Origin: a virus
Direction: 5' to 3' (one strand)
IMG/VR virus record: IMGVR_UViG_3300045988_171758
Span: 1-5,486 of that record
Length of the DNA: 5,486 nucleotides
Shown: one piece after another, positions 1 through 5,486 of the stretch
How the letters are laid out: the number at the start of each line of letters is the position of its first letter
How positions within the stretch are numbered: position 1 is the stretch's first letter
Program-made: the position numbers and the translations under genes
Notes under the pieces: generated by a model
What the model was told of the DNA's origin: nothing
Database searches by the model: none
Seen by the model: the letters and a program-made list of their open reading frames with translations, nothing else

Positions 1-52
1 GAACTCCCCTGACCCCCTACGGGGGCACGGGGAGAACTTTTTTTACTTCGAA
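1..52. terminator. GC-rich hairpin (ctcccctga-ccccctacggggg-cacggggag) preceded by A9 (5426-5434) and followed by T7 (38-44). It is a bidirectional rho-independent terminator, and it is also copy 1 of the 52-bp terminal redundancy.
   Basis: Seen directly: the hairpin lies between the convergent stops of the minus-strand Zot-like gene (stop at 43-45) and the plus-strand 78-aa gene (stop at 5412-5414). U-runs are present on both strands. Confidence 0.7.
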
Positions 53-666
53 TGGGTCTTGCTGATAACCTGCTCTGTATCGTATTCTAAAGCGCTTACC
101 TGCTTGACGGACTTGGGGATAGTATACCATCTTGGACGACCCGCCTTCCGCACCGTATTAACAAGCTCTTGCCCTCCCTCGGGGCGATGTTCCATAGCAA
201 TGCAAGACCGGTAGGGAGTAAGGCGACAGAACCAGCCAAGACGATTGCAAAGAAAAATGCGGTCGCAGAGATCACGAATCTTTTTATCAAAGTCCATGGT
301 CTGAGACGATACAATAATAGTCAAGCGATATTTGCGCTGCATCTTAAAAAACTCAACAGCTTCACGTGGCATGCTCTTAAAGTCGCGGTTAGAATGCAAA
401 ACACCAATTTCGTCAATAAGAATGAGGGAATCAGGGGGAAAGGTCTGTTTCCAGTATTCCGGCTCTAACTCATAACCAATACCCATATTAGAATAAATAA
501 GCCCCTTATTAGAACGAAGCCACTTATCAGCAACACGAGACATATACAGAGACTTGCCAGAACCTTTAGAACCAACAACAGCTTCCAATCTGTAGGGATT
601 TTTGCAATAATTATCGATATATACAAAAAGCCAGCAAATGCAAAAGATAAGAATACCGTAAAGCAT
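43..666 (-). CDS. Zot/pI-like filamentous-phage assembly P-loop NTPase (207 aa).
   Basis: Walker A motif GSKGSGKS and Walker B motif LILIDE follow an N-terminal hydrophobic segment. The gene is last in the operon, as gene I is in inoviruses. An AAAGGA SD lies 9 nt upstream of the ATG. Confidence 0.75.
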   Translation of the reverse strand: MLYGILIFCICWLFVYIDNYCKNPYRLEAVVGSKGSGKSLYMSRVADKWLRSNKGLIYSNMGIGYELEPEYWKQTFPPDSLILIDEIGVLHSNRDFKSMPREAVEFFKMQRKYRLTIIVSSQTMDFDKKIRDLCDRIFLCNRLGWFCRLTPYRSCIAMEHRPEGGQELVNTVRKAGRPRWYTIPKSVKQVSALEYDTEQVISKTHSK

Positions 667-690
667 AACATATAATCCTTTCTAAGCGAG

Positions 691-730
691 AAAACGTCGC
701 CGACCATTAAAAAATGGTCGGCGGCGTTTT
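691..730 (-). terminator. Stem-loop with a 17-bp stem (one G.U pair) and loop taaaaa, bounded by AAAA/TTTT. It is a candidate terminator or attenuator between the coat-gene cluster and the assembly-ATPase gene.
   Basis: aaaacgtcgccgaccat / atggtcggcggcgtttt are reverse complements. The position is analogous to the terminator after gene VIII in Ff phages. Confidence 0.4.
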
Positions 731-740
731 CGGACAACGT

Positions 741-857
741 TTAACTACGACCGGGAACCCAACGGCGAAGGATTCGGAGAACGATGCCAGCGATAGCGAG
801 AATTACGAAGACAAGAAGAATAGGCTCAGATTCATAAAAATCAATGAGCTGCCCCAT
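741..857 (-). CDS. 38-aa candidate major coat protein (MGQLIDFYESEPILLVFVILAIAGIVLRILRRWVPGRS). It has an acidic N-terminus, a hydrophobic core and a basic C-terminus.
   Basis: Translated by eye. The ORF is absent from the ORF track because it is too short. It has the pVIII-like tripartite architecture, but no recognisable SD lies upstream of the ATG. Confidence 0.35.
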   Translation of the reverse strand: MGQLIDFYESEPILLVFVILAIAGIVLRILRRWVPGRS

Positions 858-967
858 CCAAGTAATCACAGACGTGAAAAATTCACCGACCAAGGAAAGC
901 AACGTTGCGAGAATAGAAGTAGAAGCCTGAAGTCATCATCCTTTCTTAAAAATATTTATGGCACCTG

Positions 968-1081
968 TCACGGACGGAGCAGGAGAACCAACATAGAAAA
1001 AACAGCGGCGAAAACAATGAAATAACCAATTTCGGGAACAGAGAAAATGCCGAAACAATACTGCAAAGGTAAAATTTCCAT
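968..1081 (-). CDS. 37-aa small hydrophobic protein (MEILPLQYCFGIFSVPEIGYFIVFAAVFSMLVLLLRP). It is a candidate minor coat protein of pVII/pIX type.
   Basis: Its ATG overlaps the stop of the upstream 203-aa gene (TGATG), and a GGGGG SD lies upstream. The protein is a single TM-like helix. Confidence 0.4.
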   Translation of the reverse strand: MEILPLQYCFGIFSVPEIGYFIVFAAVFSMLVLLLRP

Positions 1082-1692
1082 CAGATTATACGCCCCCAAA
1101 TCGCGTTTTTAATCCAAGTAACAGAAGTAACGAAGACAAGGACAACAAGCAAAGCAGAAAAGCAAGCTTGCGGGTTGAGAACCTGTGAAGTAGTAGTGCA
1201 ATCCTCTTCATAAGGCAATTGAATAAGTTGAGTCGAACTGTTATAGGAATACCTTTCAGACGTATAGCCGGACTTGTGCACCGTCTCAGTGCGCTCAACG
1301 AAGAACGTATCCCCGAACCAATCCATAATAGCAGTGAAACTATTAGAGACAGCAGGGAGATTAGCATACAGAGCCGGAGAATCTGCGGCGCGGTCATCAT
1401 AAGCGGTTAAACTCCCTTCAAAAGGTAACTCTTCGTCTTGCGGGACGAAGCCAACACGAAGGTCAGGACTTTCGGTAATGTTCTGTGCAGGCTCGGCGGG
1501 GGCAGGAGTTTCTGCCGGCTGAGATTCAGCAGAGGAATTAGAATCCAAATCAACAACAGCCTGAGCGGAGGCCATGAGATAATCGTACTGTTGAACAGTC
1601 ATATCGCAAGTGCTACCGTCTTTATACTGCACGGTATAGACGGAAACGCCGTCAGAATCAACCCAAGATTTAATAATAATAGGAACTTCCAT
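1081..1692 (-). CDS. 203-aa protein with a Pro/Ala/Glu-rich linker (PAETPAPAEPAQ) and a C-terminal TM anchor. It is a candidate minor virion or adsorption protein.
   Basis: The ORF is long, with a GGTGGTG SD 7 nt upstream. It has a C-terminal hydrophobic segment (ALLVVLVFVTSVTWI) and no signal peptide. Confidence 0.6.
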   Translation of the reverse strand: MEVPIIIKSWVDSDGVSVYTVQYKDGSTCDMTVQQYDYLMASAQAVVDLDSNSSAESQPAETPAPAEPAQNITESPDLRVGFVPQDEELPFEGSLTAYDDRAADSPALYANLPAVSNSFTAIMDWFGDTFFVERTETVHKSGYTSERYSYNSSTQLIQLPYEEDCTTTSQVLNPQACFSALLVVLVFVTSVTWIKNAIWGRII

Positions 1693-1695
1693 AAT

Positions 1696-1860
1696 TAATC
1701 ACCACCATCCCAAAGACCATGAAGAACAAAACCAACAAGCGAAAGCAGAAGACAAACCAAAATAAAATTACCAAAAGTACCAAAGCCAAAAAAGGAAATA
1801 GACAGCACTTTAGCGATAAACGATGTAAAAACACCAAGAGAGTAAACAAAATCTACCATG
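1696..1860 (-). CDS. 54-aa doubly hydrophobic small membrane protein (MVDFVYSLGVFTSFIAKVLSISFFGFGTFGNFILVCLLLSLVGFVLHGLWDGGD).
   Basis: Translated by eye. An AAGGA SD lies about 9 nt upstream. The start overlaps the end of the 43-aa ORF, and the stop lies 4 nt before the next ATG. Confidence 0.45.
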
Positions 1861-1984
1861 GCAGCCAATCCTTTACAAACTTATAAACACCAAGGCCGAC
1901 AAGGAAAACAACAACAAGGATAACAAACGCGCCACCAGAACCAAAGAGACCAAAAACAGTTTTGAAGAAGTCAAGAAAACTCAT
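1853..1984 (-). CDS. 43-aa small hydrophobic protein (MSFLDFFKTVFGLFGSGGAFVILVVVFLVGLGVYKFVKDWLPW). It is an alternative candidate for the major coat protein.
   Basis: ATGA start/stop overlap with the pIII-like gene. A GGTGG SD lies upstream. It has a Gly-rich TM helix and C-terminal lysines. Confidence 0.45.
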   Translation of the reverse strand: MSFLDFFKTVFGLFGSGGAFVILVVVFLVGLGVYKFVKDWLPW

Positions 1985-4733: not shown

Positions 4734-4762
4734 AATCTTACTTTCTTTTCCTTTCCCGAAAG

Positions 4763-4800
4763 GCAATAAAAAATCCCTTTCGTAATTCACGAAAGGGATT
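4763..4800 (-). terminator. 11-bp stem hairpin (aatccctttcg / cgaaagggatt, loop taattca) followed on the minus strand by TTTTTTATT. It is a leader terminator/attenuator, or a catch for read-through transcription.
   Basis: Seen directly. It lies about 30-60 nt downstream of the predicted minus-strand promoter and upstream of the first RBS. Confidence 0.5.
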
Positions 4801-4833
4801 ATGCGAAGATTCAAATGCCCTTCGTGTGAGTAG

Positions 4834-4862
4834 AAAATAACACAAAAAAAAAGGAATGTCAA
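4834..4862 (-). promoter_or_regulatory. Sigma70-type promoter for the minus-strand operon: -35 TTGACA (4862-4857), 17-bp spacer, extended -10 TGtTATTTT (4842-4834). An AT-rich UP-like palindrome lies at 4863-4885.
   Basis: Read on the reverse complement. The -35 hexamer is a perfect consensus and the -10 matches 4 of 6 positions, with a TGn extension. Confidence 0.45.
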
Positions 4863-5011
4863 GAAGATTTTTTATATATTATAAAAAAAGCCCATAAACA
4901 GGCGCAGGAGCACGCAGGACGAAAGAAAAACGTTAAAGATATAGCCGTACCCCCTACACGACAAATGCAAGCATACAGCTCGACAGAGCCAATGCGGACA
5001 GGTGATGAAGG

Positions 5012-5030
5012 GCAAGGGCTTTGCCCTTGC
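5012..5030. other. Perfect 8-bp stem / 3-nt loop hairpin gcaagggc-ttt-gcccttgc. It sits within a GC-rich non-coding island, next to ggggacg-ggggacg and cgcagga...cgcagga direct repeats. Candidate packaging signal or origin structure.
   Basis: Seen directly. The island at about 4890-5100 is non-coding, lies between the divergent promoters, and is markedly more GC-rich than the flanking sequence. Confidence 0.4.
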
Positions 5031-5100
5031 GGGGACGGGGGACGCGGTAGAGACGCTATCGCGTGACAAAACGTGGCAACTGCCTGCAAAATTTCCCAAA

Positions 5101-5159
5101 AGAAAAATAGAAATTCCTATTGACAAATAGAAATATCTATGCTACAATAGAAACATAAA
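5101..5159 (+). promoter_or_regulatory. Plus-strand promoter with -35 TTGACA (5120-5125), 17-bp spacer and extended -10 TGcTACAAT (5140-5148). It is overlapped by three direct repeats, AATAGAAA(T/C), at 5107, 5127 and 5147, with exact 20-bp phasing. These are candidate operator sites or iterons.
   Basis: Seen directly. The spacing is two helical turns, which fits a dimeric DNA-binding protein or iteron array. Confidence 0.6.
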
Positions 5160-5177
5160 AGGAAAGGAGATAAAACA

Positions 5178-5414
5178 ATGAAAGTCAAAAAAGAATTTCT
5201 CAAAAAGGTTTTTACGGAAGGAATCGTCTACACAAAAAACTACCAATACAAAGCAGTCAAGTACACCGCAGTCAACGAAAAAGAAGAATTTTATGACTTT
5301 TTCATCATCAAGCGCATTAGCATTAACTACGTTGATACAACAAGATACCTTGATGAAATATTCTGGGAAAACATCGGTCAGACAACAGACGGAGAAACAT
5401 TTACGAGATTTTGA
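5178..5414 (+). CDS. Divergently transcribed 78-aa Lys/Glu-rich protein of unknown function. It is the only plus-strand gene.
   Basis: A perfect AAGGAG SD lies 8 nt upstream of the ATG. The promoter is consensus-like and the gene ends at the bidirectional terminator. No recognisable HTH is present. Confidence 0.65.
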   Translation: MKVKKEFLKKVFTEGIVYTKNYQYKAVKYTAVNEKEEFYDFFIIKRISINYVDTTRYLDEIFWENIGQTTDGETFTRF

Positions 5415-5434
5415 AAAGCACGACTAAAAAAAAA

Positions 5435-5486
5435 GAACTCCCCTGACCCCCTACGGGGGCACGGGGAGAACTTTTTTTACTTCGAA
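5435..5486. repeat. Exact 52-bp direct repeat of bases 1-52, i.e. terminal redundancy of a circular molecule of about 5434 bp.
   Basis: Base-by-base identity of 1-52 and 5435-5486. Confidence 0.85.

Follow-up and report, generated by a model that had tools for sequence, protein, structure and literature searches.

The WW-nAnB/X53411 'non-A non-B hepatitis' inovirus is a circle of approximately 4.8 kb that was recognised in 2011 and is abundant in sewage (PMC3187576). A 2019 survey lists the tRNA of this group as 'tRNA-Gln(ctg)' without comment, and the published descriptions of the group contain no mention of the nature of this tRNA or of a coat gene. The porcine relatives deposited in GenBank (MT135288-MT135309, L001-L007 among our loci) have two to four annotated coding sequences per record, which are named in the manner of Microviridae (protein A/C/F/H); neither a tRNA nor a coat gene is annotated in them. 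Here we report on a stretch of viral DNA from the same group, IMG/VR record IMGVR_UViG_3300045988_171758, positions 1 to 5,486; this whole stretch of 5,486 nucleotides is called the window below. It carries on the minus strand a tRNA gene with the anticodon CUG (3207-3280) and a coat-like gene without a canonical start codon (741-929), both of which were missed in a preliminary description made from the sequence alone. We propose that the tRNA is initiator-like and reads the CAG codon with which the coat-like gene would begin.

The window shares with the WW-nAnB group and the porcine relatives a circle of about 5 kb, the tRNA and the CAG start slot of the coat gene; Zot, p398, p203 and the small proteins fall into the same PHROGs. 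It differs from the WW-nAnB group in its replication genes, which include a Rep_trans initiator of another lineage (278 aa instead of the 381-aa 'protein A') and another module of single-stranded DNA-binding protein (SSB) and leader, and in an additional cassette with the open reading frame (ORF) ORF78. Its Zot protein is 93-95% identical to those of L035, L017 and L018, which we identify by their matching tRNA coordinates as JN402401 (WW-nAnB) and KJ003981/2, respectively; this places the structural module in the WW-nAnB/X53411 group.

Inoviruses with a stand-alone Zot from gut Clostridiales have already been published (PMC8530359). Propionibacterium phage B5, 'Clade-1' of Sugimoto et al. 2021 (PMC8530359) and the cryptic inoviruses of Roux et al. 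2019 resemble the window in their stand-alone Zot, the lack of a secretin and their small genomes, although at 5.4 kb the window is smaller than the Clade-1 genomes (5.6-9.4 kb). These Gram-positive and gut Clostridiales inoviruses likewise have Firmicutes hosts, with an integrase present or absent, and the papers describing them treat tRNAs only as attachment (att) sites or as markers for host prediction. Phages with single-stranded DNA (ssDNA) have been said not to encode tRNAs (PMC4032129). The tRNAs of large double-stranded DNA phages are also virus-borne, and the body of the window tRNA is close to IMG/VR phage tRNAs with the anticodon CAU and a 1x72 mismatch; in contrast to these, the window tRNA is found in a 5.4-kb ssDNA phage, has a non-CAU anticodon and is paired with a structural gene that lacks a start codon.

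Initiator tRNAs with altered anticodons have been engineered. In E. coli, tRNAfMet(CUA) receives Gln and starts proteins with formyl-Gln (PMC3017606), and engineered initiators with 31 anticodons, including CGU/ACG, work (PMC11744186); thus the ribosome allows such initiation. The engineered systems (metY-CUA at UAG; CGU/ACG) have in common with the window an initiator acceptor stem, a non-CAU anticodon and a complementary start codon placed behind a Shine-Dalgarno (SD) motif, and Gln is the amino acid expected from a CU(A/G) anticodon. They keep the three G:C pairs of the anticodon stem, whereas the natural phage tRNAs are mostly without them and have U11:A24.

The tRNA has an initiator-type acceptor stem

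The tRNA gene lies 6 nt after the rep stop codon and is nominally a 'tRNA-Gln' (ARAGORN; Rfam tRNA, 55.8 bits). It is present on the operon strand in all seven GenBank relatives, in 33 of the 37 IMG/VR relatives (the other four are truncated contigs) and in most metagenomic relatives, and it is kept even where the rep or the structural modules are swapped. Altogether, 60 unique tRNA sequences from 82 related loci were compared. The cloverleaf is 91.8% paired with compensatory changes at 13 of 21 pairs, a value reached by none of 500 shuffles. The conserved A73-CCA, T-loop and GG of the D-loop point to a working tRNA.

In the window tRNA the acceptor stem has C1xA72, G2:C71 and C3:G70, followed by A73 and an encoded CCA. 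Positions 1 and 72 are unpaired in all 60 unique tRNAs (GxA in 32, CxA in 28), and the determinants of formylation are retained: G2:C71 in 60/60, C3:G70 in 55/60 (the other five have U:G) and A73 in 55/60. C1xA72, combined with the pairs at 2:71 and 3:70, blocks EF-Tu and directs formylation (PMC3017606). The anticodon, CUG in 56 of the 60 sequences, is far more conserved than the stems; the others include UUG and CGU.

The best full-length match to this tRNA in all 5,426 complete E. coli genomes is a tRNA-Met, at a median of four places per genome. One inspected match, located between argG and rimP, is the initiator gene metY, and its acceptor stem, discriminator and CCA are identical to those of the window tRNA. 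Among IMG/VR tRNAs with the same acceptor stem and D-arm body, 41 of 44 have the anticodon CAU. In contrast, 70 phage elongator tRNAs for Gln that share the D and T arms have a paired 1:72 position (U1:A72 in 55) and unrelated acceptor stems. The window tRNA has a Gln anticodon (CUG), and it has neither U1:A72 nor a Gln-type acceptor stem. Judged by these comparisons it is an initiator-tRNA body with the anticodon changed from CAU to CUG and not an ordinary tRNA-Gln.

CAU tRNAs with a 1x72 mismatch, often with GGG/CCC anticodon stems, are encoded by many large phages (L132, L142, L162 and L235-L275 in IMG/VR, mostly large contigs). By their sequences these are the initiators of those phages, and their bodies closely match the inovirus tRNA. 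An inovirus with a CAU initiator as an intermediate was not found: the small CAU-bearing contigs in IMG/VR are unlike inoviruses by Zot and Rep. A search of IMG/VR for the tRNA body with other anticodons yielded few new inovirus variants. The tRNA of the prototype L035 (1578-1646) has a 1-nt deletion in the D-loop and an anticodon loop of 8 nt; ARAGORN reports it as 'actg' and the literature as tRNA-Ser(act), which is probably due to a sequencing error in the 2011 assembly or to a degenerate copy.

A proposed CAG start of the coat-like gene

The coat-like gene (741-929, minus strand) has 62 codons and the product (Q)ASTSILATLLSLVGEFFTSVITWMGQLIDFYESEPILLVFVILAIAGIVLRILRRWVPGRS, with a proposed start at CAG 929-927. 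Its SD sequence, GAAAGG (940-945, minus strand), is located 10 nt upstream of this codon. In frame upstream of the ORF there are only TGA TGA CTT, then CAG. The CAG is invariant in 47 unique sequences of the clade, and from the first codon after it the alignment shows 3-nt indels and third-position periodicity (0.13/0.04/0.20). Synonymous changes outnumber nonsynonymous ones after the CAG (4416:1899), compared with 169:5707 in the ATG-ATG frame. The GAAAGG-N10 slot of the CAG has the (A)AAGG-N10 geometry also found at Zot (GAAAGG-N10-ATG), p398 (GTG), p57 and p43a (both ATG), and apart from the coat CAG no SD-spaced CAG of the window begins an ORF of its own.

Two other starts were considered and rejected. 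The TTG at 902 is CTG in most relatives, the next TTG is CAG in others, and the coding signature extends further upstream. The ATG-ATG (939-934) is in another frame that evolves as non-coding sequence and lies 0-2 nt from the SD; it was rejected for the window clade. The preliminary description had pointed to strong SD sequences and GTG/TTG starts in this genome. The TTG starts of three small genes turned out to be artefacts of the ORF finder; their real starts are ATG 1859, ATG 1081 and, as proposed here, CAG 929.

The size of about 60 aa, a hydrophobic helix, a basic C-terminal tail (RxxRRxxxxR), the position just before Zot and a terminator-like hairpin after the gene make 741-929 the probable major coat protein gene. 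Pfam and PHROG searches with six coat types gave no informative matches. PHROGs has no family for the coat gene although its neighbours have one, which is expected if gene callers cannot start this gene. The hairpin (690-731, minus strand; 19 bp, 95% complementary, with a U-rich tail) lies directly after the coat gene and before Zot, the terminator-like part being 723-698. It may be a terminator or an attenuator, comparable to the terminator after gene VIII in Ff phages.

Anticodon and proposed start codon change together

In at least eight divergent lineages, coat-like ORFs have a strong SD sequence followed 7-11 nt later by a codon complementary to the anticodon of the resident tRNA. In several of these, none of the frames offers a canonical start between SD and slot; an example is L074 with AGGAGG-ATACGATT-CAG. 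Where the anticodon differs, the slot differs with it. L051 and L052 have the anticodon UUG and the slot GAAAGGAGG-GATTTTT-CAA. In L098 and L103 a homologous tRNA has the anticodon CGU, and the coat gene, which is homologous to that of the window, has the slot GAAAGGAG-AATGTTG-ACG. A second, independent CGU/ACG case is L276, a sister of L051 with near-identical coat paralogs, in which the anticodon CGU is found together with GAAAGAAGG-TTTTTTG-ACG; the other coat paralog of L276 starts with AAGGAGG-N7-TTG. L107 served as a negative control: both of its homologous coat paralogs start with SD and ATG, and neither ARAGORN nor Rfam detected a tRNA.

A search of IMG/VR with the Zot of the UUG lineage retrieved no further members, and contigs with Rep homologs gave L276-L278. 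In this sister clade, the tRNA of L277 (2924-2997) has the anticodon CUG and a U1xC72 mismatch, and the contig ends before the coat genes, where a CAG slot would be expected.

Tandem coat paralogs with near-identical C-terminal halves occur in L046 (11035-11426), L003 (4284-4682), L004 (3724-4128), L051 (8031-8433) and L276 (6631-7024). One paralog starts with SD and ATG or TTG, and the other at the tRNA-matched codon with an N-terminus that is 5-6 residues longer. This suggests two forms of the coat protein, the ratio of which could depend on the phage tRNA.

Distant lineages with Rep proteins 34-38% identical (L090, L092-L094, L097, L100, L102, L110, L074-L079, L106) do not have the tRNA after rep. 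In these it is found approximately 40 nt upstream of the CAG-start coat gene and thus adjoins its presumed client gene. Across the lineages, a U nearly always precedes the slot codon (…CTT CAG, TTT CAG, ATT CAG, TTT CAA). Pairing of a U at position -1 with A37 is possible for the initiator tRNA and is called the 'extended anticodon'.

A proposed initiation pathway and its alternatives

In the proposed pathway the tRNA would be cut out of the operon transcript and charged according to its anticodon, with Gln for CUG and UUG and with Thr for CGU. Anticodon swaps switch Met tRNAs to Thr identity. The acceptor stem would keep the tRNA off EF-Tu and allow its formylation. The tRNA would then enter the ribosomal P site at the CAG, 10 nt after the SD of the coat gene, and (formyl-)Gln would be the first residue of the coat protein, encoded by a start codon legible only to the phage's own tRNA. 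The benefit is a matter of speculation: the phage tRNA might serve as a gate for coat synthesis, or the gain might be a surface-exposed N-terminus other than fMet (Gln/pyroGlu).

Several points weigh against this pathway. The whole mechanism is deduced from comparative sequence analysis. The three G:C pairs 29-31:39-41, which are required for P-site selection in E. coli, are present in only two of the 60 tRNAs, and 29:41 is A:U in 50; the window has A29:U41, C30:G40 and G31:C39, while G30:C40 together with G31:C39 is found in 15 of the 60. The D-stem pair 11:24 is U:A, the elongator type, in all 60. The hallmark of initiator tRNAs at this position is A11:U24. With U11:A24 and the anticodons CUG, UUG and CGU the tRNA differs from a canonical tRNAfMet and can at best behave like an initiator. 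Loss of the three G:C pairs abolishes initiation in wild-type E. coli cells (PMC3017606).

The covariation of anticodon and slot rests on three events, and canonical codons occur nearby in some lineages: a GTG abuts the SD in frame in T2, L098 has an ATG at 1 nt and a TTG at 4 nt from the SD, and a TTG lies at 4 nt in L276. These in-frame codons are 3-9 nt upstream of the slot and 0-4 nt from the SD; in these lineages they could be the true starts. With 31.5 bits the tRNA of L276 is marginal, and the top of its acceptor stem is weakly paired or ambiguous. The tRNA of L278 (2386-2457) has the anticodon GGU (Thr) and a U1:A72 pair, and the contig ends before the coat genes, where an ACC or ACU slot would be expected. 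The coat identity of 741-929 was assigned by features, with no match in Pfam or PHROG, and the coat-like ORFs of other lineages look more typical of major coat proteins than this 62-aa protein. Finally, the Oscillospiraceae host is assigned from prophage relatives and not from this exact genome.

Taking both sides into account, we have fairly good confidence in the combined explanation of an inovirus replicon with an initiator-like tRNA and a CAG start. That the tRNA and the CAG start constitute a phage-private initiation system is, on the comparative data, probable on balance. About equally probable is the wider proposal that a radiation of small Clostridia-infecting filamentous phages encodes an orthogonal initiation pair, consisting of a tRNA with the anticodon CUG, UUG or CGU (perhaps also GGU) and a coat start at CAG, CAA or ACG. 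The first residue of the major virion protein would then be (formyl-)Gln or Thr in place of fMet.

The alternative that survives best is an ordinary elongator tRNA-Gln, kept for codon supplementation or as a nuclease-resistant spare, with the coat gene started by another unconventional route. Codon compensation and evasion of anticodon nucleases are the usual explanations for phage tRNAs (PMC10264068); the D and T arms resemble those of phage elongator tRNA-Gln, the U11:A24 pair and the missing G:C pairs are elongator-like, and the phage uses both CAG and CAA. However, the invariable 1:72 mismatch and the initiator acceptor stem are the opposite of what is found in tRNA-Gln and should exclude EF-Tu. 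An elongator would also leave unexplained the coat ORF without a start and the SD-spaced codon that tracks the anticodon (CAA, ACG). Codon compensation was rejected as the main reason: the host genes flanking a related prophage (61% GC) use CAG over CAA 69:2, so that the tRNA reads a codon that the host already prefers and supplementation is unlikely. The CAG share of CAG and CAA averages approximately 62% in the phages and is 50% in the window. We regard the elongator explanation as unlikely.

Still less likely is that the tRNA is a structural or genomic element, i.e. an attP-like or recombination site, 'punctuation' for RNase P/Z, or an ssDNA cloverleaf acting as minus-strand origin. BLAST blocks of mosaic relatives end exactly at the tRNA edges (2-3279, 3207-4911, 3207-3289), and only three of the 37 Zot-clade genomes share the Rep of the window; the tRNA thus marks a module junction. 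Within the operon, the tRNA is in sense orientation, and the sense strand of inoviruses is also the one that is packaged. Nevertheless, the prophages have the tRNA in their interior and the integrase at the opposite end; hence the tRNA is not an att site, and a function as attP was rejected. Moreover, in other lineages the tRNA is directly upstream of the coat gene and not after rep. A role in processing or as an origin predicts neither the conservation of the anticodon nor the matching changes in the slot, and the conserved A73-CCA, T-loop and D-loop GG speak against it, too. As a separate observation, the tRNA is a conserved island at which replication and structural modules are exchanged. 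A different tRNA is found in L084-L087 and L105: a 92-nt tRNA-Ser(GGA) on the opposite strand, approximately 1.5 kb after rep, beside tRNA-less prophages on long chromosomal contigs. This is probably the host att site of that lineage.

The replicon is a circular inovirus genome

Bases 1-52 and 5435-5486 are 100% identical, which results in a unit of 5,434 bp. Permuted, independently assembled relatives were used as a substitute for read mapping. In 22 related contigs, terminal overlaps of their own (15-127 nt) occur at differing permutation points, and a 300-nt probe across the 5434/1 junction is found as one contiguous block inside L037, L015, L024 and L042. As the preliminary description had concluded from the 52-bp identity, the window is a complete circular genome of 5,434 bp, judged by these overlaps. 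That the identity is instead an assembly artefact, in which case the element could be linear, part of something larger or of an integrated prophage, or else that it is a Rep_trans plasmid and no virus (Rep_trans is primarily a plasmid family), is very improbable in view of the 22 relatives that close independently elsewhere, the junction contiguous inside four of them, the small size of all window-clade contigs, the prototype, for which virion preparations gave a circular assembly that PCR confirmed in virions from sewage (PMC3187576), and a morphogenetic module of Zot, coat-like and pIII-like proteins, which plasmids lack.

The terminal overlap (1-52) holds a two-tier GC hairpin (~4-34), with an A-run on one side (5426-5434) and a T-run on the other (38-44). 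By its position between the convergent Zot (minus strand) and ORF78 (plus strand) genes it may act as a bidirectional terminator. No window-clade contig is longer than 5.8 kb and the window has no integrase, which is consistent with an episomal or virion form. The coding (minus) strand contains 38.9% T, with A, C and G at about 20% each. In ssDNA phages the packaged strand typically shows such an excess of T (C-to-T bias), so that the composition agrees with an ssDNA lifestyle.

It is close to certain that the window belongs to the Tubulavirales as a small filamentous phage from the WW-nAnB/X53411 group, with Oscillospiraceae-type Clostridia as its hosts. Zot proteins 91-97% identical to that of the window are encoded on 37 IMG/VR contigs, and the porcine 'Inovirus sp.' relatives in GenBank (seven records) show 77-86% DNA identity. 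The preliminary description had called such inoviruses poorly described, a label that does not fit a group published since 2011 (PMC3187576). The replicon itself is a further mosaic member of this known gut and sewage group.

Prophage relatives were found in Oscillospiraceae metagenome-assembled genomes (MAGs). In the MAG 'Oscillospiraceae bacterium UBA4632', prophages carry a Rep 73% identical to that of the window next to a tyrosine integrase and adjoin genes for SpoIVA, SipL and transketolase; a Rep with 37% identity is found in an Oscillospiraceae MAG from sheep rumen. These prophage relatives support the earlier inference of a Gram-positive host. For the window, the preliminary description had suggested an episome or the use of host Xer. 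Close relatives with another structural module carry a tyrosine integrase of their own. In the window itself, no ORF matched a secretin or a recombinase in the Pfam and PHROG searches, in agreement with the preliminary description.

Rep and a candidate origin

The rolling-circle initiator of the Rep_trans family (278 aa; 3287-4123, minus strand, ATG 4123) was recognised with a family profile. The window protein alone scores 13.6 bits against PF02486, below the gathering (GA) threshold of 29.6, and yielded no family at E <= 0.01. A profile of 18 Rep homologs matches staphylococcal RepDE (4CWC/4CWE) at E 4.6e-12, with the motifs FNPNK, RxDxxxD and Y-D-K-R-x-E aligned, and 10 of the 18 family members match PF02486 (best 3.2e-7). 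The earlier assignment to Rep_trans is thus borne out at the level of the family, and not by the PF02486 search with the single protein. Y159 in the YDKRxE motif is a candidate for the catalytic Tyr. The preliminary description had implied that a Rep_trans initiator is odd in an inovirus; in fact, among the rolling-circle endonucleases of filamentous phages Rep_trans is the commonest (PMC13595969), and 'protein A', which forms the clade's other replication module, is Rep_trans as well.

Just upstream of rep is a candidate double-strand origin hairpin (4149-4194, minus strand), found in an alignment of 18 genomes. Its stem is kept by compensatory changes, and the loop AAGTAGTAATAC stays the same in genomes whose Reps are 47-100% identical. 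A covarying stem with an invariant loop is the signature expected of a Rep_trans nick site, and we infer that the nick site is located in the AAGTAGTAATAC loop, as in IR-II of pT181. Rep would nick this loop and the genome would replicate by rolling circle as an episome. A second GC-rich hairpin with compensatory changes in the same alignment (4188-4231, minus strand) adjoins the first and could be a Rep-binding site or a minus-strand origin. Compared with RepC, RepD and RepDE of the pT181 family, the window has the aligned motif Y-(D/N)-K-(R/K)-x-E and a candidate origin hairpin with a conserved loop in common, next to the profile match. In pT181 the origin is inside rep; in the window the candidate origin is upstream of it.

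Other genes and elements of the genome

All genes except ORF78 are on the minus strand and form a single operon, which encodes an SSB-like protein, the Rep_trans initiator, the tRNA, a secreted pIII-like protein, small membrane proteins, the coat-like protein and, as its last gene, the stand-alone Zot ATPase. The inovirus gene content with Zot at the end, as described earlier, is confirmed by Pfam and PHROG matches. The Zot/pI-like assembly ATPase (207 aa; 43-666, minus strand) consists of a stand-alone Zot domain and matches PF05707 at E 1.6e-5 (24.9 bits, GA cutoff 20.3), phrog_197 'Zot-like' (1.9e-11), phrog_25712 (2e-143) and phrog_1675 'protein I of M13' (4.4e-4), which identifies it as the inovirus morphogenesis ATPase.

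Upstream of the coat gene, a 37-aa single-helix membrane protein (968-1081, minus strand, ATG 1081) is preceded by an SD and matches phrog_27039 (2.6e-28), aligned from the ATG; it is a candidate minor virion or assembly protein. The 203-aa protein (1081-1692, minus strand) has a C-terminal membrane anchor and belongs to phrog_27347 (4.6e-130). It had no Pfam match and is a candidate pVI- or pIII-like accessory protein. Two further small membrane proteins follow: one of 54 aa (1695-1859, minus strand; SD TAAAGG-N10-ATG at ATG 1859), which matches phrog_24276 (5.4e-33) from residue 4 of the TTG-ORF, and one of 43 aa (…YKFVKDWLPW; 1853-1984, minus strand; phrog_22214, 3.6e-25).

The p398 protein (392 aa; 1981-3159, minus strand) is secreted and Ser-rich, with a signal peptide (…SALA|AS), a C-terminal anchor and an SD-preceded GTG start at 3159. 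It belongs to phrog_24417 (6e-185), without a Pfam or secretin match, and from its position and architecture is a candidate pIII-like adsorption protein. Its gene is followed by those of four to five small membrane proteins. Upstream of rep, an 80-aa protein (4243-4485, minus strand) is a candidate ssDNA-binding protein of the RstB/gpV type: it matches phrog_929 RstB (2.4e-7) and phrog_2866 SSB (7.3e-5), both over the N-terminal 40 residues only, and Pfam RstB PF07459 weakly (13 bits, below GA). The first gene of the operon, ORF74 (74 aa; 4509-4733, minus strand), starts with SD and ATG and had no family match in the Pfam and PHROG searches.

By its consensus match, the sequence TTGACA-17-TATTTT (4862-4834, minus strand) is the putative promoter driving the operon. 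About 27 nt into the predicted leader and before the ORF74 start at 4733, a 13-bp hairpin followed by UUUUAUU (4800-4772, minus strand) looks like a promoter-proximal terminator or attenuator. The GC-rich intergenic region 4863-5119 is structured (DNA fold -35.2 kcal/mol, z = -2.58), includes the hairpin GGCAAGGGC-AAA-GCCCTTGCC and is a candidate packaging signal or minus-strand origin.

The divergent accessory cassette (5120-5414, plus strand) comprises a near-perfect promoter with a TG element (TTGACA-17-TACAAT, 5120-5148) and ORF78 (5178-5414). Three ATAGAAA(T/C) direct repeats, about 20 nt apart (5100-5160), overlap the -35 and -10 elements of this promoter. Only 14 related loci have homologs of ORF78, in every case on the strand opposite to the operon, and ORF78 had no family match in Pfam or PHROG. 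The cassette could be an autoregulated accessory, immunity or regulator module.

Discussion

The window is useful as a clean and complete example of its group, with a candidate origin, promoters and corrected gene starts. Genomes of approximately 5 kb with ssDNA are among the smallest known to carry a tRNA gene, and an initiator-like role in coat synthesis would, if true, explain why such tiny phages retain it. It would also explain why the coat gene is absent from the gene calls and protein-family libraries for an abundant phage group.

Bacterial initiation is generally seen as bound to a single initiator tRNA and to AUG-like codons, and departures from this have so far been a matter of synthetic biology. 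Full-text literature searches turned up no report of an initiator tRNA, natural or from a phage, whose anticodon is other than CAU. As far as this literature goes, the pair described here would, if true, be the first natural start codon outside the AUG class that is read by a dedicated initiator tRNA. It would mean that a virus can reassign the identity of the start codon gene by gene with a natural, evolutionarily mobile pair, and these phages would provide ready-made orthogonal initiators that function in Firmicutes.

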